Shown one piece after another: positions 25,035 to 38,255 of a stretch of 64,000 bases of DNA. This stretch comes from Bacillota bacterium (lineage in GTDB: Bacteria; Bacillota; Sulfobacillia; Fermentithermobacillales; Fermentithermobacillaceae), in contig DUVI01000053.1 in NCBI GenBank assembly GCA_012841065.1, positions 43,811 to 107,810 on the forward strand, in the 5' to 3' direction. How positions within the stretch are numbered: position 1 is the stretch's first letter; each line of letters opens with the position of its first letter. The position numbers and the translations under genes were made by a program. The notes under the pieces were generated by a model that ran no database searches, was not told where the DNA came from, and saw only the letters and a program-made list of their open reading frames with translations.

Positions 25035-26507
25035 TCACACAGTATCAGAGAGGTTTGACGGTTTGCGCCTCACGACCACTATCGGGGTTTGTTGTTCCTG
25101 GTTACCTGCAGGATTACACGACATCACTTCTTCAAGCCATGCAGGGTCAACTCCTGAAGAATATCCCACAGCCCACGCCACCCCAAGATCGTTGGCATCT
25201 ACGATAGCAGCTTCGCACCCTAACTCCCGGGCCATCCTATTTGACAGCCCTGAAGGATCCTCAGGCCCCATAATCACGTAATAGTCATAGGGCGGCAGGC
25301 TGCCCAACACATCGTCGATTTGCCCTGCATCCTGGCCCCCGACAACATAGAACCAACCCTTCCTGCCGAGAAGCTTGCCCACTGCGCCTGCTGCCGCTGC
25401 AACAAGCGTTCTTAACGTTCCAATCTCCTCGAGCAATACTTGCATTGACAAAGGGTTAGCCATAGGTGCAGCGCCGCCAAAGGGGACGTCTTTCTGATCT
25501 ACGAAGCGCGACAGGGTCTTGGCGACAAAACCAGGTTCAACTGCGCCTTCCATGAAAATACGCCCTTCCATGAGCCCTGCCACACATGAAGATAGGGTTG
25601 CTATGTCTTTAGGCTGGGGTTGGGTCACGTGTTGCTTCATTGCCTCAACAGGGTCATCGTTCTCCACAAACAATTTGGTCTTCACAGGTATTAACTCAAC
25701 ATCTGAAGGAGGCGCCTTGCCCCGCATAGGAATTGGAGGCAAGTCTTCTTGTTGTCCAAACCCAAGGGTCTCCCAGGCCTGCCTCAGCAACAAACTTCTG
25801 GGATACGCCTTTATGCCCAGGGACAGGATATCCCGGGCCTTGTCCCTCTGCCCCCTGTCAATCAAGCCGCTGACAAGTATGTGAAATTCATGGTCGTGAA
25901 AGTTTGATGACTCCAACTTGATGAACTCGGCCAGATGGTCGATGAGTTCATCTTCCATGCCCTTTTCCTCCAAGATACGGCACACCCGCTTGTAAGCCAC
26001 TTTCAGCGGGTTCTTCTTATTGAGTTGCCTGCATATGTCAAGCGCTTGCTTGAACGACTCAAAAGCGCTGTCGGTGTCTTTCAGGAAAAAGTACTGGATA
26101 TCTCCTATGAGCAGATAAGGCCAAGGGTTCTCAGGTTCAATCTGTGACAGACGCTGCGCCACATTGAGCGCGCTGTGGTACTGTTTGTCTTTGATAAACA
26201 CATGGATAAGCAGCCGGCCGCATCTAAGTGAGGGCCTTTTTTCAAGGGATTTCTCGAGCAGCACCTTTGCCTCTTGCCTGTTGCCGGAACGAATCCGCTG
26301 CTTAGCTGCCATGTACACGACATATGGATGATGTTCGGGCCTAGCGTATTTGGCAAACCCTTTGGAGGCAACCGACTTCAGGCCGAGCACATCAAGGAAC
26401 CACAACCAGTAGACTATCGCTGAGCCCAATAGGAAGAACCCCTTTCTATCCACGCATCTACTCACAAATGGTACCACATGAACAGTGTGCGGTCTACCTG
26501 CAACCAA
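25035..26507 (-). CDS. Membrane-anchored TPR-repeat protein with C-terminal CofE-like (F420-0:gamma-glutamyl ligase family) domain
   Basis: N-terminal TM helix, TPR-like repeats (about residues 60-260), and a C-terminal about 180 aa with GPEDP...D.NDLG.AW.VG and TPIVVVRRK blocks resembling the CofE fold family. Domain assignment is by eye. Confidence 0.5.
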   Translation of the reverse strand: MVAGRPHTVHVVPFVSRCVDRKGFFLLGSAIVYWLWFLDVLGLKSVASKGFAKYARPEHHPYVVYMAAKQRIRSGNRQEAKVLLEKSLEKRPSLRCGRLLIHVFIKDKQYHSALNVAQRLSQIEPENPWPYLLIGDIQYFFLKDTDSAFESFKQALDICRQLNKKNPLKVAYKRVCRILEEKGMEDELIDHLAEFIKLESSNFHDHEFHILVSGLIDRGQRDKARDILSLGIKAYPRSLLLRQAWETLGFGQQEDLPPIPMRGKAPPSDVELIPVKTKLFVENDDPVEAMKQHVTQPQPKDIATLSSCVAGLMEGRIFMEGAVEPGFVAKTLSRFVDQKDVPFGGAAPMANPLSMQVLLEEIGTLRTLVAAAAGAVGKLLGRKGWFYVVGGQDAGQIDDVLGSLPPYDYYVIMGPEDPSGLSNRMARELGCEAAIVDANDLGVAWAVGYSSGVDPAWLEEVMSCNPAGNQEQQTPIVVVRRKPSNLSDTV

Positions 26508-28200
26508 GCAACTGCTCAGCTATCTTTCTGAAGAGGGGGGCAGCTATAGAAGGCCCGTCACCGGATCTTTCACAAAACACGCAGATCACATACTTAGGCG
26601 ACAGGATTGGAGTCCAGCCTACGAACCACGCCTGGTTTGAAGCAGGGCCATCGTTCATTTCTGCTGTTCCCGTCTTGCCTGCACTGCCGAAACCTGGCAC
26701 CCAAGCTGCCTTGCCTGTACCTTCTAGGGTAGAAAGCAGCAGCGCTTCCTGCAAAAACTGGGATACCTTCCCGGAAAACAAGGTCTTTTCCGGGAAGTCT
26801 GCACCTGCAACGAGCCCTGGATTCTTCCATTTCCCGCCGCATGCGACGGCTCTGTAAAAACACGCTGCTTGAACCGGGGTAACTGTAAGATAGCCTTGGC
26901 CAATAGAGAAATTGCCCACATCACCTGAGAACATCGAGTTTGGTTCAGGCAGGATCCCGGCAGATTGCTGGGAAAGGGGCAGGTGCAACTTATTGCCAAA
27001 GCCACATTCTACAGCCCAGTCAATCAACTCTTGAGGCGGTATCCTCAACCCGACCTGAATCAGGGTGCAATTGCACGACTGGGCCAGTGCTTGCTTTACC
27101 GTAATGCTCCCGTGACCTTCAGGCGAAGAACCACACCTTATTACGGTAGAGCCAATCTCGATCCGGCCGTCGCACTCAAACACTTCGTCAGGAGTTACAT
27201 AACCCTTCTCAAGGGCCAAGGCCAGCACCACAGTTTTCCAAATCGAGCCTGGGGTAAAATCGCTGATATTTCTGTTGACGAAAGGAGCATCGGGAAGGAG
27301 GAAGTACTCTTCAGGATTGTTTTGATCGTACTGGGGCCTGGACGCCATTGCAAGGATTTCACCGCTCATTGCATCCAATACAACCACGCCACCCCTCCCC
27401 ATCCCCTCTTGGTCCAAGACACGCTCCACCTTGTACTGGATATTGACATCCAGCGTAGTAAGTAGATCTTGAGGATACTCTCCTGTGAAACCCATCCTCA
27501 CACCTGTTCCGGGGATCTCAGAACCATCTCCCGTGACCAGGGTTCCCACCCATGCAGAGGTCCCTCCTGCAAGGCTGGTTTGGAACCAGCTTTCAAGCCC
27601 GCTCTCTCCCACGTTGTCCTTTGGGTTGACGTATGCATTGGGCCTTATGTGTCCCACCACATGCCTTGCCAGAGATCCGGGTCCGTATCTGATTTCCTCC
27701 GGGATCACAACAAGCCCAGGAATGGATTTATGCATTATCGCTGCTATCTGCTCAGGAGGCAACCCTCTCAACAGTTTGAACGGAGCACTGTGAGCATCCA
27801 GGATTGCTCGAAGGCTGTCTTCATCCATCCCTGTAAGTGCTGCAACCTCGTCTACAAACCTCTGCTTATCTTCTATCTTAGAAGGGAAAACAGCCAGAAC
27901 TGAGTGCCAGGACGGGTAATGAAGCGGCACACCGTTTATGTCAAGTATCCGGCCCCTAGCCAAAGCTACAGGCACGCTTTCCCGCCTTTGCAACGAAGCA
28001 GGCCTTATGTACCTGATCCCGCTAATAGAATCGATGATCTGGTAATTGGCCAGCAAACCCAGGAAAAACAAAAACACGCAGCCGAACGCAAACAGCACTT
28101 GCTTTATCCTGGAACAGGTGCCGGGGCAGCAGTCTTCTTCGTTTCCGCACACTCCAGACCTCTCAACCTTGCTCACACTGGCCTCCCCAAGCATGAACAA
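26494..28200 (-). CDS. Class B penicillin-binding protein (SpoVD/FtsI-like transpeptidase), no PASTA domain
   Basis: TM anchor, dimerisation domain, and transpeptidase motifs SxxK (GSIWK), SxN (SCN) and KTG (KTGTAE). Adjacent to sigK, so spoVD-like. Confidence 0.85.
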   Translation of the reverse strand: MFMLGEASVSKVERSGVCGNEEDCCPGTCSRIKQVLFAFGCVFLFFLGLLANYQIIDSISGIRYIRPASLQRRESVPVALARGRILDINGVPLHYPSWHSVLAVFPSKIEDKQRFVDEVAALTGMDEDSLRAILDAHSAPFKLLRGLPPEQIAAIMHKSIPGLVVIPEEIRYGPGSLARHVVGHIRPNAYVNPKDNVGESGLESWFQTSLAGGTSAWVGTLVTGDGSEIPGTGVRMGFTGEYPQDLLTTLDVNIQYKVERVLDQEGMGRGGVVVLDAMSGEILAMASRPQYDQNNPEEYFLLPDAPFVNRNISDFTPGSIWKTVVLALALEKGYVTPDEVFECDGRIEIGSTVIRCGSSPEGHGSITVKQALAQSCNCTLIQVGLRIPPQELIDWAVECGFGNKLHLPLSQQSAGILPEPNSMFSGDVGNFSIGQGYLTVTPVQAACFYRAVACGGKWKNPGLVAGADFPEKTLFSGKVSQFLQEALLLSTLEGTGKAAWVPGFGSAGKTGTAEMNDGPASNQAWFVGWTPILSPKYVICVFCERSGDGPSIAAPLFRKIAEQLLGCR

Positions 28201-28305
28201 AATACTTCGTATACACCTTAGTATGTTTTGTCCTAGCTCCGCTGCTTTATTCTTAGGGGCCGCAAGGTTGTAGCAGGCCGTTGCGGAGGGCTTAAGACAT
28301 CTTCG

Positions 28306-29184
28306 TTACAGCAGATCTCGTTTCCGGACTAACTGAACCAGATACTGTTCAAGTTCCTCACCCAGGTCTGTCCGGGCCAATGCCATCTCAATCGTGGCAA
28401 TAAGCAGCCCTTTGGGAGTCCCCACATCATATCTTATGCCTTGAAACTCGTAGCCGATGATGGGTTCCTCCTGAGCAAGTACCCTCAGGGCATCTGTGAG
28501 CTGAATCTCACCGCCTCTTCCAGGCTCCAGGCTCTCAAGTATGGGAAATATTGCCGGCGGCAATATGTAACGGCCGATAACTGCCATATCCGACGGAGCT
28601 TCTTCGGGACGGGGCTTTTCCACCAGGTCTGTAACTTCCCACAACCCGTCGCCCAAAGGTTTCCCTTGTATTATGCCGTAGGACGAAATCTCTTCCCTGG
28701 GAACCCGGCGTATAGCAATCACGGGCCTTTTGGTCTGCTCGTACACTTCTACCATTTGCTTTAAGCAGGGCTTATCAGACTCTACGATGTCATCGCCTAA
28801 TAGCACTGCAAAACACTCGTCGCCTATATGCTGCTTGGCACACCATACCGCATGCCCCAACCCCAGGGGCTTTTTCTGCCTTACGTAATATATCTGGCAC
28901 ATGCAAGCTATGTTACGGACCAGTTCCAAGAGGTCGGTCTTTCCCTGTTTCTCCAAATGGTGTTCAAGTTCGCCTGAATGATCGAAGTAGTCTTCCAATG
29001 GCCGCTTATCTTTCCCTGTAATGAACAGGAAGTCCTCGATTCCGGACTGAACTGCTTCTTCGACAACATATTGGATTGCAGGTTTATCTACTATGGGCAG
29101 CATTTCCTTTGGCTGTGCTTTGGTCACCGGCAAAAACCTTGTGCCCAATCCGGCCACAGGGAAAATCGCCTTCTTAATTGACAT
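28306..29184 (-). CDS. galU: UTP--glucose-1-phosphate uridylyltransferase
   Basis: Core motif KAIFPVAGLGTRFLPVTKAQPKEMLPIVDKPAIQYVVEEA. ATG 29184 with RBS AAAGGAG is preferred over the track start 29322. Confidence 0.9.
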   Translation of the reverse strand: MSIKKAIFPVAGLGTRFLPVTKAQPKEMLPIVDKPAIQYVVEEAVQSGIEDFLFITGKDKRPLEDYFDHSGELEHHLEKQGKTDLLELVRNIACMCQIYYVRQKKPLGLGHAVWCAKQHIGDECFAVLLGDDIVESDKPCLKQMVEVYEQTKRPVIAIRRVPREEISSYGIIQGKPLGDGLWEVTDLVEKPRPEEAPSDMAVIGRYILPPAIFPILESLEPGRGGEIQLTDALRVLAQEEPIIGYEFQGIRYDVGTPKGLLIATIEMALARTDLGEELEQYLVQLVRKRDLL

Positions 29185-29311
29185 TTGGAAAATGCTCCTT
29201 TCGCCTAGTGCTATACCTATTCTAACCTCATAGGCTTGAAAAATGAAATTCCCGCCTACCCAACCATATCCCTGCGCCTTGTGTTCCGGCAGAAAACGGA
29301 ACATAATAGAT

Positions 29312-30460
29312 ATGGTGAGCAACGTGCGTATATCAATGTGGACTGACAGTTACTATCCTTATATTTCAGGTGTTACTCGCTCTGTAGCAACCACCAAAGA
29401 ATCCTTGGAGCTTATGGGCCACGACGTTACAGTGTTCTGTCCTTCCTATCCGGGGACCACTCACGAGGATAAGATTTATCGCTTCCAGTCCATAAAAGCG
29501 CCCACCAAACCTGACTATTACATAGCTTTTCCTGCGAATCCCAAGCATCTAATCGCCCTAAGCGAAATCTCGCCTGAAATCATCCATATTCATTCGCCGT
29601 TTAACCTTGGTAAGATGGGACTAAGGATGGGCAAACTCCTCAAGATCCCGGTGGTGTTTACTTACCACACAATGTACACCCTGTACTCACACTACCTACC
29701 TGTCATAGGGCCAATGGCATCTGAACTTATCGAAGCAGGGTCTTTCATGACCGCCAAGCAGGCAAACGCAGTAATAGCCCCGTCCACTGCAATCAGAGAC
29801 TATCTTATCGAGCACAAGGTGAAAACCAAAATCTTCGTAATCCCGACCGGCATTGATGTTAACCGTTTCCGCCAAGGAGACCCGGGCTACATACGTAACA
29901 CGTTCAATGTTCCGTCCGGCGTTCCGGTGCTCCTCAGCTGCGGGAGGTTAGGGCCTGAAAAGAATCCTGAGACCCTAATCAAAGCGTTTGCCCTAATCCA
30001 GAGACACATAGACTGCTACCTTGTGATGGTGGGCGACGGGCCCTTGCACGAAACCCTTGTCGAACTTGCCAACAAGCTAAACGTAAGCCACAGGATCATA
30101 TTCACGGGCAAAACACCTCCTGATATCATGCCCCACATGTATGCAAGTTCAGATGTGTTCTTGTTTGCATCTGTAACAGAAACCCAGGGGCTGGTCATAG
30201 TTGAGGCAAAATCAGCCGGTGTTCCGTGTGTAGCGGTAGGGGCGCTTGGTGTCAGAGATATGGTCGAACATGATGTAGACGGATACTTGTGCGAAAACGC
30301 CCCTGAAGCCATTGCTGAAAAAACCCTGGCCTTGCTGGAAGACCAGGAGTTGCTGACTACCATGAAATCCAACGCATTGGCCAATGCATCAAAGTTTTCA
30401 TTGGAAACAACCTGCAGCAGGCTCGTTGACTGCTACATGGAAACCGCCCAACACTTGTAA
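29312..30460 (+). CDS. GT4-family glycosyltransferase
   Basis: GT-B fold with an EX7E motif (TETQGLVIVEA) and an N-terminal (R)ISMWTDSYYPYISGV. The start is ambiguous between 29243, 29312 and 29321. Confidence 0.8.
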   Translation: MVSNVRISMWTDSYYPYISGVTRSVATTKESLELMGHDVTVFCPSYPGTTHEDKIYRFQSIKAPTKPDYYIAFPANPKHLIALSEISPEIIHIHSPFNLGKMGLRMGKLLKIPVVFTYHTMYTLYSHYLPVIGPMASELIEAGSFMTAKQANAVIAPSTAIRDYLIEHKVKTKIFVIPTGIDVNRFRQGDPGYIRNTFNVPSGVPVLLSCGRLGPEKNPETLIKAFALIQRHIDCYLVMVGDGPLHETLVELANKLNVSHRIIFTGKTPPDIMPHMYASSDVFLFASVTETQGLVIVEAKSAGVPCVAVGALGVRDMVEHDVDGYLCENAPEAIAEKTLALLEDQELLTTMKSNALANASKFSLETTCSRLVDCYMETAQHL

Positions 30461-31921
30461 TCAAGCAGGCCTTTCAATCCGCCCCTTGCGTGCAAGTGCC
30501 TCCATGTAGAGCTCAGTGTACAGGGCCGCTGACCTGTTCCACGAGAAGTCCCGCTGCATTACATTGACTACAAACGCTTGCCATGCCTCCTTGTTGTTGT
30601 ACGCCCTAACCGCCCTGGATACAGCGCCCACTAGGTCGTCTGCAGAGTAATCCCAGAACACAAAGCCGCTACCTGTCCCGCTATTGGCATCGTAATCCAG
30701 TACAGTGTCCTGGAGGCCTCCGGTCCTGCGAACTATGGGGACTGAGCCGTATCTCATGGCAATCAGCTGGCCTAGTCCGCACGGCTCGTATCTTGAAGGC
30801 ATGAGGAACATGTCGGAACCTGCATAGATTTTCTGAGCCAGTACCCCGCTGAAGCCGATTATTGCGGCCATTTTGTCGGGATAGCGCTCCTTTACGGAGA
30901 CAAACGCTTGTTCATAATGGGGATCTCCTGTCCCCAACAGCACAAACTGCACATCCATGGACAGTACCCTATGGATCGATTCGAGGAGTATATCAAGGCC
31001 TTTCTGATCTACAAGCCGGGAGACCATCCCGATGAGGGGACGCTCCGATATGGGCAATCCAAGTTCTCTCTGCAAGGCGCACTTGTTTTCCTTTTTCTTG
31101 TCTATGCTTTGGGAATCATACGTCTTGTAAATTCTCGGATCAGTGCTGGGGTCAAACTCATGGTAGTTGATCCCGTTCACAATTCCAAACAGGTCCCTGC
31201 CGCGCTTTCTGAGAATCCCATCGAGGCCTTCACCGAACTCGGGTGTCTGTATTTCCCGGGAATATGTCTCTGATACCGTGTTCAGTACATCCGCGTACAC
31301 TATGCCGGCCTTCATGAAGTTTACTTGGCCGTAATACTCTACTCCTTCAGGGTGGAAATAGCGTTCCGGGACACCCAAGAAATGAAGCGTCTGCTTTGGG
31401 AAATTACCTTGATACCGCAGGTTGTGTATGGTGTAGCAAGTAGCCACATCTTCCCATACCGGATTACCGGGCACCCTTTCCCTTATAAGAAGAGGCACAA
31501 ATCCGGACTGCCAATCGTTGCAGTGAACTACATCCGGGATGAAGTTAAGATGCTCACACATAGTCAACACTGCCCGGTTGAAGAAGCTGAACCTCTCTGC
31601 TTCATCCGGATAACCATAATACCCTTCCCTGTCAAAATAATGGTAGTTGTCCAGGAAATACACGGGAACATGTTTTACCCCATCCGGGCTCTTAGCCTCG
31701 ATGAAGCTTGTGCGTACGATGCACGTTACTTTCCTCTGCCCCACTTGAACGGGAAAATCGCCGATGGTGCGAAAATCAGATATGCTACGGTAGCGGGGCA
31801 ACACAACCCGCACATCATTGCCTTGCAGGAGAAGTGCTTTCGGCAGCGAACCGGCTACATCTGCCAATCCACCCGTCTTGGCGAAAGGAGCTACTTCAGA
31901 TGACACTATCAGAATCTTCAT
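30461..31921 (-). CDS. glgA: Glycogen/starch synthase (GT5, ADP-glucose type)
   Basis: N-terminal MKILIVSSEVAPFAKTGGLADV (KTGGL motif) and a C-terminal EPCGL motif. Its stop abuts the GT4 stop with zero spacer. Confidence 0.9.
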   Translation of the reverse strand: MKILIVSSEVAPFAKTGGLADVAGSLPKALLLQGNDVRVVLPRYRSISDFRTIGDFPVQVGQRKVTCIVRTSFIEAKSPDGVKHVPVYFLDNYHYFDREGYYGYPDEAERFSFFNRAVLTMCEHLNFIPDVVHCNDWQSGFVPLLIRERVPGNPVWEDVATCYTIHNLRYQGNFPKQTLHFLGVPERYFHPEGVEYYGQVNFMKAGIVYADVLNTVSETYSREIQTPEFGEGLDGILRKRGRDLFGIVNGINYHEFDPSTDPRIYKTYDSQSIDKKKENKCALQRELGLPISERPLIGMVSRLVDQKGLDILLESIHRVLSMDVQFVLLGTGDPHYEQAFVSVKERYPDKMAAIIGFSGVLAQKIYAGSDMFLMPSRYEPCGLGQLIAMRYGSVPIVRRTGGLQDTVLDYDANSGTGSGFVFWDYSADDLVGAVSRAVRAYNNKEAWQAFVVNVMQRDFSWNRSAALYTELYMEALARKGRIERPA

Positions 31922-31942
31922 TCCTGTATCCAGCAATTTACC

Positions 31943-33001
31943 TCATCCTTTCCCACCGAATTGAAGCGCTGCTAACTCAGGAGGAACTGGGTTTATCCAG
32001 ACTGCAGCGCCCTTCTCCAACCCCGCTTCTACATTGAGCCGCGGATATACGTGGATATGCCAATGGTCGGTTGGGTGCTTCCTGGACCGCTTAGGAGGAG
32101 GAAGAGTGTGAAAAACAATGTTGTACGAAAGGGACGAGAACATATTTTCGTAAGCACGAAACAACGATGTAAACACTTCTGCAAGTTGCGTTGCCTTTTC
32201 ATTGTCCAGTTCCGAAAATGTCACACAATGCTTTCTGGGCACTATCAGAGTTTCAAACGAGAATCTTGAAGCGAAAGGGCAGAGCACGATGAATTCATCA
32301 TTTTTCAGTGCCACCCTCTCATCCTTCTCCGTTTCCCGTTCTATGTAATCGCACATGAGGCACCGTCCGGTCTTTGACTCGTACTCCCTGAAATGCGATA
32401 CCTCCCTGGACACTTCAGGCGGCATGAGCGGCAATCCTATTATCTGAAAATGAGGATGCAACAAGGAAGCGCCGCCTTCAGGCCCCCAGTTCCGGAAGAT
32501 TTGCACATAGCTGATGTATTTGTCATCGCTGAGCACCCTGTACCGCTGCTTGAGGGTTTCAAGGATTACTGCCATCTCCTCTACGGTATATGTGCCCAAG
32601 GTGCCGTTGTGCTTGACTGACTCAACTACTACCTCATGGGCCCCGATGCCGGGCATGCGCCAATACATGGAGGTATCATCCGCTTCCGGTGCGGCCTCTG
32701 TGTCAATCATCCCTGAGTCGATCTCTGCCGTTTCTGCAGAACGCAATGCAGGGAACTTGTTGGGAACCACCCGCACACGCCAACCTGGCTGGTTTGCTTC
32801 GCCGGCATCGCGCAGCGCATACACTTCAGGAGGGGTCTCATTCTCGTTGCCTACGCAGAACGAGCAATTAGGATCGATCTCGGGAACCGGGCCCTCATAT
32901 TTCTGGGCCGCCTTGAAGTCGTTCGGCCTTTTTGCCCGGTCTGAGGCGATTATGGTACAGGTTCCGGACAAAATGTCATATCGTAGTTCGGGCAAGTGCA
33001 T
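31943..33001 (-). CDS. galT: Galactose-1-phosphate uridylyltransferase-like (GalT/HIT class I)
   Basis: 352 aa with a zinc motif (CSFCVGNE) and an active-site HPHFQ (HxHxQ). Confidence 0.8.
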   Translation of the reverse strand: MHLPELRYDILSGTCTIIASDRAKRPNDFKAAQKYEGPVPEIDPNCSFCVGNENETPPEVYALRDAGEANQPGWRVRVVPNKFPALRSAETAEIDSGMIDTEAAPEADDTSMYWRMPGIGAHEVVVESVKHNGTLGTYTVEEMAVILETLKQRYRVLSDDKYISYVQIFRNWGPEGGASLLHPHFQIIGLPLMPPEVSREVSHFREYESKTGRCLMCDYIERETEKDERVALKNDEFIVLCPFASRFSFETLIVPRKHCVTFSELDNEKATQLAEVFTSLFRAYENMFSSLSYNIVFHTLPPPKRSRKHPTDHWHIHVYPRLNVEAGLEKGAAVWINPVPPELAALQFGGKG

Positions 33002-33022
33002 CGTCCTTTCGGAAGAAACTTA

Positions 33023-33053
33023 TGAATCAAAAAGGGGTAGCTAACTACCCCTT
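33023..33053 (-). terminator. Intrinsic terminator after the CotF-like gene
   Basis: Minus strand reads AAGGGGTAG-TTAG-CTACCCCTT followed by TTTTGATTC. Perfect 9-bp stem. Confidence 0.75.
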
Positions 33054-33067
33054 AACGACTTAGCTGC

Positions 33068-34138
33068 CTATCTCCACTGTCCCTGGGTTGCTGGCTGGGA
33101 CTGGATCCAGCTCGGCTGTCCGCCCCACCGGGCCCATTGAGCCAGACTGCTGGGCCCCATGCCACTCTGGCCTTCACCGGCCTGGGTGCCGGTCCACTGG
33201 GGAGTCTGGCTGTAAGTTGGTTGCCAGCCTGTGCCCGTCTGGTATGGCTGGGCCGACGACGTCACGCCTGTAGTGTAACCGCCGTATCCGTGAGTCTGGG
33301 TGCCGTAAGATGCCCCCTGGCTCCCATAGACGTTGTGAAGCCCTTGCGTCCCGCTTTGCATCCAACTCGGCTGGCCGCCCCACGATGTCCATTGAGCCAG
33401 ACTGCTGGGTCCCATGCCGCTTTGGCCCTCACCCCGCTGGGTGCCGGTCCACTGTGGGGTCTGGCTGTAAGTCGGTTGCCAGCCTGTACCTGTTCCGCTT
33501 TGCATCCAACTCGGCTGCCCGCCCCATGATGCCCACTGGCCGAGGCTGCTTGGTCCCATGCCGCTTTGGCCTTCGCCGCGCTGGGTGCCGGTCCACTGTG
33601 GGGGCTGGCTGTAAGTCGGCTGCCATCCGGTTCCCGGTTGAAACGATTGTGTCCTCATGTAAGACTGCTGGCCTGTACCTGTCTGGAACCCCTGGGACTG
33701 GGGCTGGGAATACCACCCGCCAGGCTGTGACTGCCATCCGCCGCCGGGCAGGTTTGATGAACTTCCGTAGGAATACACGTTCGGGTTGCCAATCATGTTG
33801 CTTTTTCCTCCTATATCAGACATTTCCCCGGCAATCGATGCAAGGATCTGTTTCGATTCCTGTGCTGTATTTCTCAGATCATTCACAGATTGAGCATCAG
33901 CTTGCCTGGGTTTGTACCAACCTTTCGAATTCAGGTAATCGAACACTTGCTTAGCTTGGGATTGGGTTTCGTTGTGCATCTGCTGGAACGTGTTTCTCAG
34001 GTTCGGATCCATCGACTCCAAAACCGCAGGAGCGTAGTAGTAGTTTGATATGTACTTCTGGCTCGTGAGGATGTCTTCTGCAATTTCCCTGTCAGTGAGC
34101 GTACCTTGCTTCTGCCCTGCCCCTAACGTGTGAGACAT
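33068..34138 (-). CDS. CotF-family spore coat protein with Gln/Gly/Trp/Ser-rich repetitive C-terminal region
   Basis: N-terminal about 80 aa Coat_F domain (LTDREIAEDILTSQKYISNYYYAPAVLESMDPNLRNTFQQMHNETQSQAKQVFDYLNSKGWY). The C-terminus carries three copies of a 48-aa unit. Confidence 0.8.
   Translation of the reverse strand: MSHTLGAGQKQGTLTDREIAEDILTSQKYISNYYYAPAVLESMDPNLRNTFQQMHNETQSQAKQVFDYLNSKGWYKPRQADAQSVNDLRNTAQESKQILASIAGEMSDIGGKSNMIGNPNVYSYGSSSNLPGGGWQSQPGGWYSQPQSQGFQTGTGQQSYMRTQSFQPGTGWQPTYSQPPQWTGTQRGEGQSGMGPSSLGQWASWGGQPSWMQSGTGTGWQPTYSQTPQWTGTQRGEGQSGMGPSSLAQWTSWGGQPSWMQSGTQGLHNVYGSQGASYGTQTHGYGGYTTGVTSSAQPYQTGTGWQPTYSQTPQWTGTQAGEGQSGMGPSSLAQWARWGGQPSWIQSQPATQGQWR
33095..33637 (-). 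repeat. Three copies of a 144-bp (48-aa) coding repeat inside the CotF-like gene
   Basis: Unit TGTGWQPTYSQTPQWTGTQRGEGQSGMGPSSLAQWxSWGGQPSWMQSG. Two tandem copies lie at 33350-33637 and a third at 33095-33238, all near-identical at the DNA level. Confidence 0.85.
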
Positions 34139-34157
34139 ACAATCCTCCTCCTTTGAG

Positions 34158-34340
34158 TTAGCTTACGTGGCCCATAAGCATATCAACGTGCTGCCTGCAA
34201 CTTCTTTGCAGTTCAAGAACAAGTTTGCGCAACTCAGGATCCTGTACTTGGTTGAGGTAGTTGGCCAGTTTTTGGCCCATCAGAGTTTCGCCTTTGATCG
34301 ATTCAGAAAGATACCAGGTTTCCGTTTGAGTGAGCGCCAA
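34158..34340 (-). CDS. Small (60 aa) helical protein co-transcribed upstream of the CotF-like gene
   Basis: TTG start at 34340 with a strong RBS AAGGGGGTG. Its stop lies 19 nt before the CotF-like start, which has RBS AGGAGGAGG. Loosely resembles a four-helix Coat_F-type fold, but the call is uncertain. Confidence 0.5.
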   Translation of the reverse strand: MALTQTETWYLSESIKGETLMGQKLANYLNQVQDPELRKLVLELQRSCRQHVDMLMGHVS

Positions 34341-34413
34341 TCAGCCATCACCCCCTTTCACACATCAAACTTAGGATTCCTCGGGAAATGTTCCGATATT
34401 CTCCGCTGACCCT

Positions 34414-35799
34414 TTACATTGTGAGGGAACCGGTTTCGTCGATTACCATCTGAAGCACCATTTCTTCTTGCCCGGTCATGGCATTTATGTAGATGAGGTA
34501 AGTATCTTGTGCGTGTGTAACCCGGAATTCCCACGCCATAACCGCCCTTCCTGCAACCAAGGGAATAACCGTCAACCTTGGCTCGCCTTGCCTGACCAGC
34601 TCAGGGTTAAGGACTTCGCCGGCTTGTTTTGCGGAAACCAAGGGAGGCCTGAGTTCTGTAGATACAGCATTTGTCAGGTAGGCTACCGCATCATAGCCAA
34701 TGATGTCGCCGGTATCCAAGGCCACCTCGACCTTGACCATTTCCGGGAAAAGCACTACCTGGACGGGTTTTGAGTCTACCGTAACAGATCCTGTGCCGGC
34801 ATAGGTAAACACTGCCCTGTCACCGTGGGTTTCCGGCTTGCGCCACCCTGTCTCAATGAGCCGGTTCATGCCCAACCTATCCAAGAATGCCGTTGCGGCT
34901 TGCCTTGCAGCATCTACGTCCAACTGCGGGTTTGTCCTGGCCTTCTGACCCACGCCCCACAAAACCGCGCCTCCGGCCTTGGCCACTGCAACCGACACTT
35001 CACTCCCGTCGTCTCTCGTGCCGGTTACCAGAAAAGCAGGAACCACTCCGTCAATGTTGTCAACTCGCACAGCGGTGAAATCATCTTTCTCATTCATGAA
35101 ACCAAGGGCAATCCTCTCGGCTTCTTGGGGGGAGATTTCAGGGCCCGGATTGGCAAGGGGCTTCGACTCGAGCGCCCGGTCGGAAAAGGGGCCGTCATAT
35201 GCCGGCGAAGGTACGCTTTGTACAAGGCTTTCGATTTCCGAAAACCCCCTGAACCATGCGTCATCGGTTGAAGGAACCGGTGAGGCCAATCTCAGAGATA
35301 ACAGCCCCGCCTGGGAGCCTCCACCCTTGAAAGCATTGGCCCCTGTTTCTGCAAGTGCCCTGGCAAGATCTTTCACTCCGGTTTCGCAGGTGCTGAGCAC
35401 TTCCCATTCTGAAGGTGTCACAGTATCGCCTCTCGCGAGTTTCTGGGACAATACCATGCAGTAATCCCCCACCTGGGCAACGAACTTCTGCATAGCTGAA
35501 AGGTCTACTGTCGTCATCCCCATGACCGATAGGTTTTCCTGAGCTGCCTGAGAATGGGACCAGGTAGCAGTCAAGAAACCACTGCGTTGGGCAGGTGTCG
35601 ACGAAGCTCTTGCCTTGGCAAGGTTCCCTTCCATGTTCTCAACATGGGACAGTAAGTTGAAGAACGCCCGCTGCCTGGCCACTTCACCTAGGATTCTAAA
35701 CTTTTGGGCCTGCCGGTACTGGACTATACCAAAAATAATGGCTGCAATGGCAATCGCCGTAGTTATCCAAAGGGCATATCTTTCCCGTCTGACTTCCAT
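34414..35799 (-). CDS. ypeB: Spore germination protein YpeB (PepSY-domain protein)
   Basis: 461 aa with an N-terminal TM helix. YpeB-like blocks are present (ARQRAFFNLLSHVENMEGNL; C-terminal TYLIYINAMTGQEEMVLQ). Directly downstream of sleB. Confidence 0.85.
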   Translation of the reverse strand: MEVRRERYALWITTAIAIAAIIFGIVQYRQAQKFRILGEVARQRAFFNLLSHVENMEGNLAKARASSTPAQRSGFLTATWSHSQAAQENLSVMGMTTVDLSAMQKFVAQVGDYCMVLSQKLARGDTVTPSEWEVLSTCETGVKDLARALAETGANAFKGGGSQAGLLSLRLASPVPSTDDAWFRGFSEIESLVQSVPSPAYDGPFSDRALESKPLANPGPEISPQEAERIALGFMNEKDDFTAVRVDNIDGVVPAFLVTGTRDDGSEVSVAVAKAGGAVLWGVGQKARTNPQLDVDAARQAATAFLDRLGMNRLIETGWRKPETHGDRAVFTYAGTGSVTVDSKPVQVVLFPEMVKVEVALDTGDIIGYDAVAYLTNAVSTELRPPLVSAKQAGEVLNPELVRQGEPRLTVIPLVAGRAVMAWEFRVTHAQDTYLIYINAMTGQEEMVLQMVIDETGSLTM

Positions 35800-35819: not shown

Positions 35820-36308
35820 CTAACGGCCGAAAACGTGAGACCCGATTTGAACTATAATCGAGCGCGACCATATCCACGGGCTGACCGGCTTTGACGGGTT
35901 CCAGAAAAAAAGCGCTCCATAAGTTGGGTCCCACCCGTTTAGCGCAAGTTCAGCAGCCCGGATGTTCTCAGGCGATGGGTCCCTGGTCCATATCAGCCCG
36001 TTTTCCACCGATTCAAACGCCCAGGGATCATACACTACACCGGCAACTGTATTTGGAAATTCAGGGCTCCTAGCCCGGTTGAGGATGACGGCGGCCACAC
36101 CTACCTGGCCGGTAAGAGGTTCACCTGTGGCCTCGCCCATGATGAGCCTGGCGATAAGGTTTACCTCATCCAACCACGTTTGCGGTGCGGCCAACGCCCA
36201 TTCAGGGGCTGCCATGCACTGAGGAATATCTGATCTGAGGAACACAGTGCAAAACAAGAGCAAGCCTACTACGGTCGCTAAGGAGAATATCTTTCTTGAC
36301 ATAGACAT
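35820..36308 (-). CDS. sleB: Spore cortex-lytic enzyme SleB-type hydrolase (catalytic domain only)
   Basis: 162 aa with a signal peptide and a Hydrolase_2 domain (VAAVILNRARSPEFPNTVAGVVYDPWAFESV...GALFFWNPSKPVSPWIW). It lacks the N-terminal PG-binding repeats. Confidence 0.8.
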   Translation of the reverse strand: MSMSRKIFSLATVVGLLLFCTVFLRSDIPQCMAAPEWALAAPQTWLDEVNLIARLIMGEATGEPLTGQVGVAAVILNRARSPEFPNTVAGVVYDPWAFESVENGLIWTRDPSPENIRAAELALNGWDPTYGALFFWNPSKPVSPWIWSRSIIVQIGSHVFGR

Positions 36309-36383
36309 CCCTTCCCAGTGAACTCTTAGTTTTTCTTAGAGTTCCTGAAAAGGCAGTGGAATTATTCACATACCATGGGCTTA

Positions 36384-37427: not shown

Positions 37428-38255
37428 TCAAACCCCGGGCTCTTCATCATCATCTTCGTAATCTTCCACTTCAATATCATCTTCAAGGTCTAATTCATAG
37501 AGGGCCCCGATTACCTCTTCCCATTCATCTTCCTCATCTATGGTGCAGAGAGTAGCTCCATCTTCACCCAACCTGTCTACGCGCAAGATTACGATTTCCG
37601 GTTGATCATCTTCTTCACTATCTGCCGGCATAAGCACAACGTATTGCCTGTCTCCTACAAATAAGCCGTCCAACAGGAGTTTGAATTCCTCTTCGTTACC
37701 GTCCTCGTCAGACAACACTATTACATCATCAAAGGCCTGCTCTCCTAAGTTGTCGGTTTTCCGGTCATCTCGGTTGTTCACGTTCTCACTGCCTTTCGGG
37801 TTTCCGTGCGTGTTTGACACACTACGAAGATAGTTTTCGAGAATCAGTACCGAAGCCGCCTCATCAATTGCCGTCCGGCGCCTTCGTCTTGACATTCCCA
37901 AGCCTATCATTTCCCGTTCAGCTTGTGAAGTAGTTAATCTCTCATCCCAAAGCACAACAGGCAGGCCGCTTCTGGCCTCCAATTTACGTGCAAAATTGAG
38001 GGCCCTTCTGGCTGATTCACCAAAGCTTCCGTCCATATTCTTGGGGATACCGACTACAAAGCCTACCGCTTTGTAGGTCGCTGCAAGACTCATGGTTTCT
38101 TCAAGCACCTGTTCCAGGTTCCGGTAGGGTATGGTGCAAAGCGGATGAGCAAAACACGCCAGTTCATCGCTTATGGATACCCCGACGCGTCTCAGCCCCA
38201 AGTCTATTCCTATCAGTCTTCCTTCAGGAACGTCAGTCTTTGACCTCAGAATCAT
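37428..38255 (-). CDS. ruvX: Holliday-junction resolvase-like RuvX (YqgF) fused to a C-terminal DUF1292 (YrzB-like) acidic domain
   Basis: Residues 1-145 form a YqgF RNase H-like domain (LIGIDLGLRRVGVSISDE). Residues about 175-275 form a DUF1292-like domain (IVLSDEDGNEEEFKLLLDGLFVGDRQYVVLMPADSEEDDQPEIVILRV...EEDEWEEVIGALYEL). The two domains sit in one uninterrupted frame. Confidence 0.8.
   Translation of the reverse strand: MILRSKTDVPEGRLIGIDLGLRRVGVSISDELACFAHPLCTIPYRNLEQVLEETMSLAATYKAVGFVVGIPKNMDGSFGESARRALNFARKLEARSGLPVVLWDERLTTSQAEREMIGLGMSRRRRRTAIDEAASVLILENYLRSVSNTHGNPKGSENVNNRDDRKTDNLGEQAFDDVIVLSDEDGNEEEFKLLLDGLFVGDRQYVVLMPADSEEDDQPEIVILRVDRLGEDGATLCTIDEEDEWEEVIGALYELDLEDDIEVEDYEDDDEEPGV

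Follow-up and report, generated by a model that had tools for sequence, protein, structure and literature searches.

The subject of this study is a two-gene unit on the minus strand, at positions 33068-34340, of a 64,000-nucleotide stretch of contig DUVI01000053.1 (assembly GCA_012841065.1), referred to below as the window. The upstream gene encodes a protein of 60 amino acids (aa). The downstream gene encodes a 356-aa protein in which a helical Coat_F domain is followed by a low-complexity tail with three repeat units. A first-pass annotation had described the locus as a two-gene coat module, and both open reading frames (ORFs) were confirmed, in the same order, at 24 of 24 loci. The locus is a self-contained two-gene operon consisting of promoter, 60-aa gene, 356-aa gene and terminator. 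The Coat_F/Yra-type gene pair is of a known kind, and the repeat tail is the unprecedented part. Taken as a whole, the locus is best explained, with moderate confidence, as a forespore split-CotF pair with a multivalent repeat tail. The following features were identified:

34158-34340, minus strand: 60-aa ORF with a TTG start, from the ORF list.
33068-34138, minus strand: coding sequence of the 356-aa Coat_F protein including the stop codon, with an ATG start, from the ORF list, Pfam and the homology search.
33821-34096, minus strand: helical N-terminal domain, residues 15-106, from the Pfam Coat_F match (15-77) plus a third helix.
33071-33820, minus strand: low-complexity tail, residues 107-356, from composition and AlphaFold2 (AF2) prediction.
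33494-33637, minus strand: repeat unit 1, residues 168-215, from repeat finders and a profile hidden Markov model (HMM).
33350-33493, minus strand: repeat unit 2, residues 216-263, in tandem with unit 1, from repeat finders and HMM.
33239-33349, minus strand: 37-aa spacer rich in G, Y, S and T, residues 264-300, from the sequence.
33095-33238, minus strand: repeat unit 3 (terminal copy), residues 301-348, from repeat finders and cross-species grouping.
34372-34401, minus strand: candidate forespore-type promoter footprint of the 60-aa gene, from cross-locus conservation.
34348-34356, minus strand: Shine-Dalgarno sequence AGGGGGTGA of the 60-aa gene, 7 nucleotides (nt) ahead of the TTG.
34144-34154, minus strand: Shine-Dalgarno sequence AAAGGAGGAGG of the Coat_F gene, read from the sequence of the 19-nt gap.
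33032-33053, minus strand: intrinsic terminator AAGGGGTAG-TTAG-CTACCCCTT followed by TTTTGATT, with a 9-bp stem and a T-run.
34414-35799, minus strand: ypeB, from Pfam and NCBIfam matches.
35820-36308, minus strand: sleB, which forms a germination operon with ypeB, from Pfam and NCBIfam matches.
36337-36367, minus strand: promoter-like site of sleB, GAATA-N19-AACTCTA, a motif conserved 5' of sleB in related loci.

The 60-aa gene and the Coat_F gene are separated by 19 nt, and each has its own Shine-Dalgarno sequence. Hence, the translational coupling proposed in the first-pass annotation is not strict, whereas the ribosome binding site and the small gene itself were upheld. Co-transcription of the two genes is probable. 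In an alignment of 12 loci, the Shine-Dalgarno sequence GG[A/G]GGTG and the TTG start of the 60-aa gene were invariant. The TTG start is also visible in 25 of 25 extracted sequences (the window and loci L009-L032); strict keeping of this weak start codon may set the stoichiometry of the 60-aa protein relative to the product of the ATG-started Coat_F gene. The terminator that had been noted behind the pair was recovered in most related loci as a GGGGTAG/CTACCCC stem 3' of the Coat_F gene; the loops differ. Promoter footprint and conserved terminator together delimit the pair as a discrete transcription unit. No inverted repeats or mobile-element features were found within 33000-34400. The plus-strand ORFs at 33137-33529 and 33310-33954 are spurious, as had been suggested, since the repeat DNA is stop-free and GC-rich (G+C content of 0.63-0.645 in the tail DNA versus about 0.50 in the flanks). 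In related contigs, the gene calls P0049, P0052 and P0078 are chimeric or frame-shifted, running from the wrong frame or from antisense repeat DNA into the true frame. These miscalls are attributed to stop-free repeat DNA misleading gene callers, as with the plus strand at 33137-33954.

A homology search returned 57 relatives, nearly all of which combine the Coat_F N-terminus with repeats; all derive from metagenome-assembled genomes (MAGs) of uncultured Bacillota, and no close relative without repeats was present among the 57. Synteny was scanned in one genome per GTDB species, which yielded the 24 loci. Their records go by Candidatus Fermentithermobacillaceae, "Bacillota bacterium" or uncultured Eubacteriales; among them is Ca. 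Fermentithermobacillus carboniphilus Bu02, whose genome is closed. The lineage is the uncultured class DTU015 (Ca. Fermentithermobacillaceae), about 30 species of thermophilic anaerobic fermenters with predicted sporulation, represented by MAGs only (PMC10215811). The gene order sleB, ypeB, 60-aa gene, Coat_F repeat gene was found at 24 of 24 loci, followed by a galT-like gene where the contig reaches far enough (all but three loci). Across the 24 loci, identity to the window sequence was 54-88% for the 60-aa protein and 44-85% for YpeB.

In the 356-aa protein, residues 15-77 matched Pfam Coat_F (PF07875) with 72.3 bits (cut-off 25.7; E = 3.7e-20), and the match spans model positions 1-62 of 63. 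AF2 predicted helices at residues 16-41, 45-71 and 82-106 with a predicted local distance difference test (pLDDT) score of 70-88. In fold searches, this domain came closest to encapsulated half-ferritins and to 2RBD, a structure of the CotF family, but no E-value was significant; fold-search results were used as consistency checks only. No NCBIfam model matched the 356-aa protein, and a PDB sequence search with the full protein and with the profiles of alignments A3 and A2 gave chance matches only (hydramacin at E = 0.1, MARK2, SMC1). The N-terminus contains no signal peptide or hydrophobic segment, as judged from its sequence. The invariant columns of alignment A3 (I19, A20, D22, L24, K28, N32, Y33, Y35, A36, P37, A38, L40, E41, R48, F66, Y68, G73, Y75, A80, D81, L88 and N90) include no His, and in alignment A2 two members have Arg in place of His51. 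Because neither alignment holds an invariant Glu/His ligand set, a di-iron site is unlikely.

For the 60-aa protein of the window, no significant Pfam or NCBIfam match and no Coat_F match at E <= 0.1 was obtained. When 16 family members were scanned singly, all matches stayed below threshold, namely DUF3231 in 15 of 16, DUF2383 in 14 of 16, DUF4142 in 13 of 16 and Coat_F in 12 of 16 (best E 2e-4), four families of the ferritin-like clan of Pfam. Thus, the HMM comparison with Coat_F and ferritin-like families that had been proposed earlier gave nothing for the window protein and sub-threshold matches for its relatives. AF2 predicted a two-helix hairpin (helices 5-29 and 35-59) with a pLDDT of 95.4. 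Its nearest solved folds were encapsulated half-ferritins, with template modelling (TM) scores of 0.85-0.9 and non-significant E-values. At best, the 60-aa protein is a ferritin-like-clan hairpin and not a demonstrable Coat_F member. The ORF is a real gene, because the identity of its product is kept across 24 species and the product is predicted to form this hairpin.

The tail was described in the first-pass annotation as three near-identical 144-bp repeats. Three 48-aa units rich in G, Q, S, T and W are indeed present, and repeat finders placed a 143-144-nt unit three times, at 33093-33235, 33348-33490 and 33492-33634. However, the copies differ from each other at 20, 24 and 34 of 144 nt (76-86% DNA identity), and the array is only partly tandem, with units 1 and 2 adjoining and unit 3 following after the 37-aa spacer. 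Synonymous and nonsynonymous changed codons between copies stood at 14:4, 13:5 and 19:7. Since divergence is mostly synonymous, the repeat peptide has been kept while silent sites drifted. The copies are therefore old and under selection, and the recent expansion supposed earlier is not borne out. Unit 3 clusters with its terminal counterparts in L010, L012 and L009 (81-86% nt identity), which indicates that the terminal copy is orthologous across species and that internal copies turn over.

In the window protein, the profile HMM placed unit 1 at residues 180-215 (60.8 bits) and unit 2 at 228-263 (62.4 bits), and GWQPTYSQTPQ stands ahead of each core. The tail consists of 20% G, 17% Q (16.8%), 14% S, 11% T, 8% P and 7% W. 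G, Q, S, T and P together account for 70% and W, Y and F for 12.8%, while D, E, K and R make up 4%; a single Lys (0.4%) and zero Cys occur in its 250 aa. No Pfam match was found in the tail. AF2 gave pLDDT values of 30-40 throughout residues 107-356, i.e., predicted disorder, and did not support a folded repeat domain. As a test for a BclA-type arrangement, the repeat TGTGWQPTYSQTPQWTGTQRGEGQSGMGPSSLAQW... was inspected; it is devoid of Gly-X-Y triplet periodicity and has no Pfam collagen match. An identical 356-aa protein was assembled in 3 independent samples and a same-length variant with 3 substitutions in 5 further samples. Recovery from at least 8 samples shows that the three-copy structure is not a one-off assembly artefact.

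Across the family, the profile consensus of the core is WTGTQ[Y/A]GEGQSGMGPSSLAQ[G/W]ARWGGQPSW, also given as WTGTQxGEGQSGMGPSSLAQ[W/G]ARWGGQPSW; it is 30-34 aa long and is covered by no Pfam model. When 1.84 billion representative proteins were scanned exhaustively with the HMM, 26 matches at E <= 1e-3 were returned, all of which belong to this family but two. The two exceptions, P0080 and P0081, were rejected as family members, being unrelated repeat proteins with weak matches. Because matches are confined to the family and no Pfam model exists, the motif is a class-specific invention. This agrees with the earlier view that the repeats are an atypical extension of a CotF-like protein: they were absent from Coat_F proteins elsewhere. 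Median identity to the window protein was 85% for the 30-aa core as compared to 60% for the helical domain; the regular expression that locates the cores fixes 10 of 30 positions, and without these the core identity is still about 77%. The motif is thus the best conserved part of the protein, and it is under purifying selection. In the distant relatives P0018, P0029, P0038, P0042 and P0054, a further motif, [N/T]LP[S/P/A]W[T/A][R/Q]G, is interspersed among the core repeats.

The copy-number variation that had been anticipated was found when relatives were compared. By the family profile, proteins contain from 1 to at least 6 units, and closely related species have 2, 3 or 4. Length differences are clean insertions or deletions of whole units: one 79-aa unit is the sole difference between P0004 and P0006, 78 aa are the sole difference between P0020 and P0079, and 82 aa separate P0012 from P0016. 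P0002, a close relative, has the spacer after unit 1 rather than after unit 2. Copy number evidently changes by unit-wise recombination, to judge from these comparisons.

The relation between the repeats and the helical part became apparent at loci without the 60-aa gene, which was lost in two divergent lineages, represented by L034 and by L033, L035 and L036. The repeat gene lies at 4776-5798 in L033, 2971-4251 in L034 and 2888-3906 in L035. In L034, it begins 29 nt after ypeB; its Coat_F region is 35% identical to that of the window and has no Pfam match, but the promoter-like motif (GAATA-N18-TATGCTA) and four good repeats are kept, and the start of the called ORF falls inside the -10 box. 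In L033, L035 and L036, the helical domain is down to "MSSYYYAPP", while the -10 box CATGCTA and four repeats are kept. The position after ypeB is retained in both lineages without the 60-aa gene, and the 60-aa gene was present at every locus with an intact Coat_F domain. This co-loss argues for a joint function of hairpin and Coat_F domain, and for a tail that can function on its own.

The compartment of expression was approached through the 73 nt that separate ypeB from the 60-aa gene. In the window, this gap holds GAATA (34401-34397), an 18-nt spacer and AATCCTA (34378-34372). Across 25 loci, G-[A/C]-A-T-A and [A/C/T]-A-T-n-n-T-A were invariant or nearly so, and the spacer was fixed at 18 nt in length but variable in sequence. 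The footprint has the form GAATA-N18-[C/A]ATnCTA, with CATTCTA at -10 in many loci; the C after GAATA is not conserved, with T in the window and G in L014. As an internal control, a bipartite motif of this kind was kept 5' of sleB in every related locus. In the 64-kb window, the strict pattern matched only twice, 5' of the 60-aa gene and 5' of sleB. The B. subtilis sigma-G consensus is reportedly G[AC]AT[AG]-N17-18-CAT[AT][AC]TA, which the loci with CATTCTA at -10 match. In B. subtilis, sleB is sigma-G-dependent. In C. difficile, sleB is sigma-F-dependent (PMC3789822). Mapped C. difficile forespore promoters look alike, e.g., CD3489 with TGAATAA...GCATCCTA. The -35 element is ATA for sigma-E promoters and AC for sigma-K promoters. 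When the footprint was tested against mother-cell promoters, its -35 was an invariant G-[A/C]-A-T-A with no sigma-E- or sigma-K-type element, and its -10 did not show CATA---TA spacing. The footprint resembles the consensus, is conserved across loci and recurs 5' of sleB. These three properties point to a forespore sigma factor of the sigma-G/F type, and not to the mother-cell coat sigma factors, as the one that would transcribe the operon alongside sleB-ypeB. The expectation of a sigma-K or sigma-E promoter in the first-pass annotation is at odds with this footprint, and with the sigma-G control of the B. subtilis yra operon. Since the protein lacks a signal peptide, synthesis in the forespore would confine it to the core or to the inner face of the membrane.

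Some further observations were made in the neighbourhood. At 28222-28252 on the minus strand of the window, GAATAAAGCAGCGGAGCTAGGACAAAACATA forms a forespore-sigma-like bipartite motif 5' of the ORF at 26494-28200 (minus strand), a PBP_dimer/Transpeptidase protein that may be a sporulation-specific penicillin-binding protein. Downstream of the operon, at about 28300-33001 on the minus strand (7138-11833 in L001), lie galT-like, glycosyltransferase family 5 (GT5) glycogen-synthase-like, divergent GT4 and NTP_transferase genes, which also come after the pair in those related loci whose contigs are long enough; a role in glycogen metabolism or in making a spore polysaccharide is conceivable for them. 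On the other side, a 275-aa ORF at 37428-38255 (minus strand) is RuvX, a Holliday-junction resolvase-like protein, fused to DUF1292; in L033, RuvX (146 aa) and DUF1292 (116 aa) are encoded by separate adjoining genes at 855-1654.

In the favoured explanation, the 60-aa hairpin and the Coat_F domain would be the two halves of a split CotF, as layout, fold and co-loss indicate, and would probably come together as a single ferritin-like bundle of helices for oligomerisation or anchoring. With low certainty, the repeat motifs may act as multivalent aromatic "stickers" that bind a common partner or each other and so build a structural spore matrix, and copy number might tune valency. Several points count against this explanation. 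The -10 box AATCCTA of the window fits 5 of 7 positions of the B. subtilis consensus, and the 18-19-nt spacer is 1-2 nt longer than in the listed C. difficile forespore promoters. A relaxed sigma-G pattern was found 7 times in the window with 8.5 expected, i.e., without enrichment. For that reason, motif matches in a single sequence were not accepted as evidence; the putative promoter assignment draws on consensus resemblance and on the phylogenetic footprint across species. As to the bundle, when hhalign was used to compare the 60-aa family with its neighbour's Coat_F domain, the probability was a non-significant 2.6%, fold searches with both models gave E > 0.03 for a helical hairpin that is a generic fold, and the co-loss comprises two evolutionary events only. 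As to the tail, the predicted disorder may be caused by the shallow 26-sequence alignment, and some copy-number differences between near-identical proteins could be due to short-read assembly collapse.

The coat reading with which the locus was first annotated differs most from this explanation. In it, the pair would be a mother-cell (sigma-K/E) outer-coat module whose Q/G/W/Y-rich repeats are cross-linked, by transglutaminase or oxidatively, or self-assemble. It draws on the significant Pfam Coat_F domain, on CotF being sigma-K-made in B. subtilis and a cotF-like gene of C. difficile being under sigma-E or sigma-K, on a tail with 17% Gln plus Tyr and Trp, and on the NCBI name "spore coat protein" of some family members. 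Nevertheless, it is judged unlikely: the footprint G[A/C]ATA / CATnCTA is unlike mother-cell boxes and has the same motif 5' of sleB as its counterpart, and the Coat_F domain is also found in forespore-specific proteins. With one Lys and no Cys, the tail could only donate Gln. Transglutaminase cross-linking is unattractive because of the single Lys and because a protein made in the forespore would be out of reach of the coat enzymes of the mother cell. A forespore-type promoter would also suit a storage or protective core protein, whose tail would resemble gamma-type small acid-soluble proteins (SASPs) or desiccation-protective disordered proteins in role and would be broken down during germination to supply amino acids and nitrogen. 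The absence of a signal peptide or hydrophobic N-terminal segment and the Gln/Gly/Ser-rich, repetitive, predicted disordered tail of variable copy number would fit such a role. But a reserve should drift, whereas here a 30-aa motif with three costly Trp is about 85% identical class-wide, above the folded domain, and by eye the tail shows no cleavage motif like that of the SASP protease. The storage reading is thus considered decidedly unlikely.

A link to cortex lysis was considered because of the genomic position. The pair might be an accessory of the SleB-YpeB cortex-lytic machinery, its Trp/Gly motifs binding glycan or tethering or silencing SleB in the dormant spore. The pair adjoins sleB-ypeB in 24 of 24 genomes, as does the repeat gene in the lineages without the helical module, the promoter motif is common to both units, and spaced aromatic residues are typical of carbohydrate-binding surfaces. 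However, the site of action of SleB and YpeB lies beyond the inner spore membrane, whereas the protein has no signal peptide or membrane anchor. Moreover, the pair has its own promoter and terminator, and synteny alone is no functional link, the galT and glycogen-type genes being equally syntenic. This role seems improbable, more so than those weighed above. That the repeats are an assembly artefact or a non-functional low-complexity expansion is scarcely credible. Repeats of 144 nt are open to short-read mis-assembly, and some near-identical proteins are one unit apart, but at least 8 independent samples gave the length of 356 aa, reads can tell the copies apart by their 14-24% nt differences, and substitutions are mostly synonymous in a motif conserved class-wide. 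For the window locus, the artefact reading, which the first-pass annotation had named as a caveat, is effectively refuted.

The forespore split-CotF pair with its multivalent tail may have implications beyond this locus. The locus amounts to a natural dissection, in which a helical two-gene module is kept or lost as a unit and the appended motif array outlives the module. If the promoter inference holds, caution is due before every "Coat_F" annotation is read as a coat protein. The unannotated repeat family is confined to one uncultured thermophilic class that is common in anaerobic digesters; it is a possible lineage marker and a candidate determinant of spore material properties. A bolder proposal, which is offered as a speculation with the odds well against it, is that the unit is a new spore-building module: a forespore-made, nearly uncharged, aromatic "sticker-spacer" protein whose multivalent motifs self-associate or bind glycan, so that thermophile spores would gain a gel- or glass-like matrix in their core or innermost integument, with copy number tuning the material. 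The split-CotF bundle would then be a dispensable nucleation point or anchor, because two lineages discarded the bundle and kept the repeats.

Among known systems, the Yra pairs of B. subtilis come closest. Yra proteins are short, with about 65-120 aa, and although CotF-like proteins occur widely among spore formers, to our knowledge none of them has a known molecular role, the forespore Yra-type pairs being especially obscure. The operon yraG-yraF-adhB-yraE-yraD is sigma-G-controlled and forespore-specific; YraG and YraE are similar to the N-terminal half of CotF, YraF and YraD to the C-terminal one (PMC6878958). YraD and YraF are given a Coat F domain, while YraG is not (PMC7725329), and YraF has been called forespore-specific (PMC7352945). 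As in these pairs, a gene for a small helical protein lies directly 5' of a co-oriented Coat_F gene at all 24 loci, and Pfam Coat_F is found only in the second protein. In contrast, the Yra pairs have no repeat tail and stand in another genomic context, the window pair following sleB-ypeB. Forespore expression is established for B. subtilis and deduced from the footprint for the window pair; the likeness is one of layout and published descriptions. On the strength of shared gene order, domain distribution and putative compartment, the window pair is read as a Yra-type split CotF.

In B. subtilis, CotF itself is produced by the mother cell under sigma-K and is a coat protein. With CotF and 2RBD (BH2358), the window protein shares the Coat_F match and a similar predicted helical-bundle fold, but CotF has both halves in one chain. 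No Coat_F protein outside DTU015 carried the WTGTQ...GPSS...W repeat in the scan of 1.84 billion representatives. EncFtn (Rru_A0973) and EncB of M. xanthus, two-helix half-ferritins that pair into a four-helix bundle, were the top structural neighbours of both window proteins, with TM scores of about 0.6-0.9 normalised to the shorter partner. They differ in that the matches have non-significant E-values at 14-21% identity, and that the window proteins show no ligand set and no encapsulin context.

For the tail, low-complexity spore proteins of variable copy number offer a comparison, namely the repeats of CotG and CotB, the Gln-rich region of GerQ, the collagen-like repeats of BclA and the gamma-type SASP. 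They share with the window tail low-complexity repeats and variable copy number, but no sequence relationship. The tail has neither BclA-type Gly-X-Y triplets nor Lys/Arg-rich phosphorylation repeats, and the coat and exosporium repeat proteins probably differ from the window protein in expression compartment. FUS-type and prion-like domains are similar in being G/S/Q/T-rich with regularly spaced aromatics, about 4% charged residues and predicted disorder, a comparison that concerns mode of action only. While FUS-type domains keep their composition, the window family keeps a specific 30-aa sequence.

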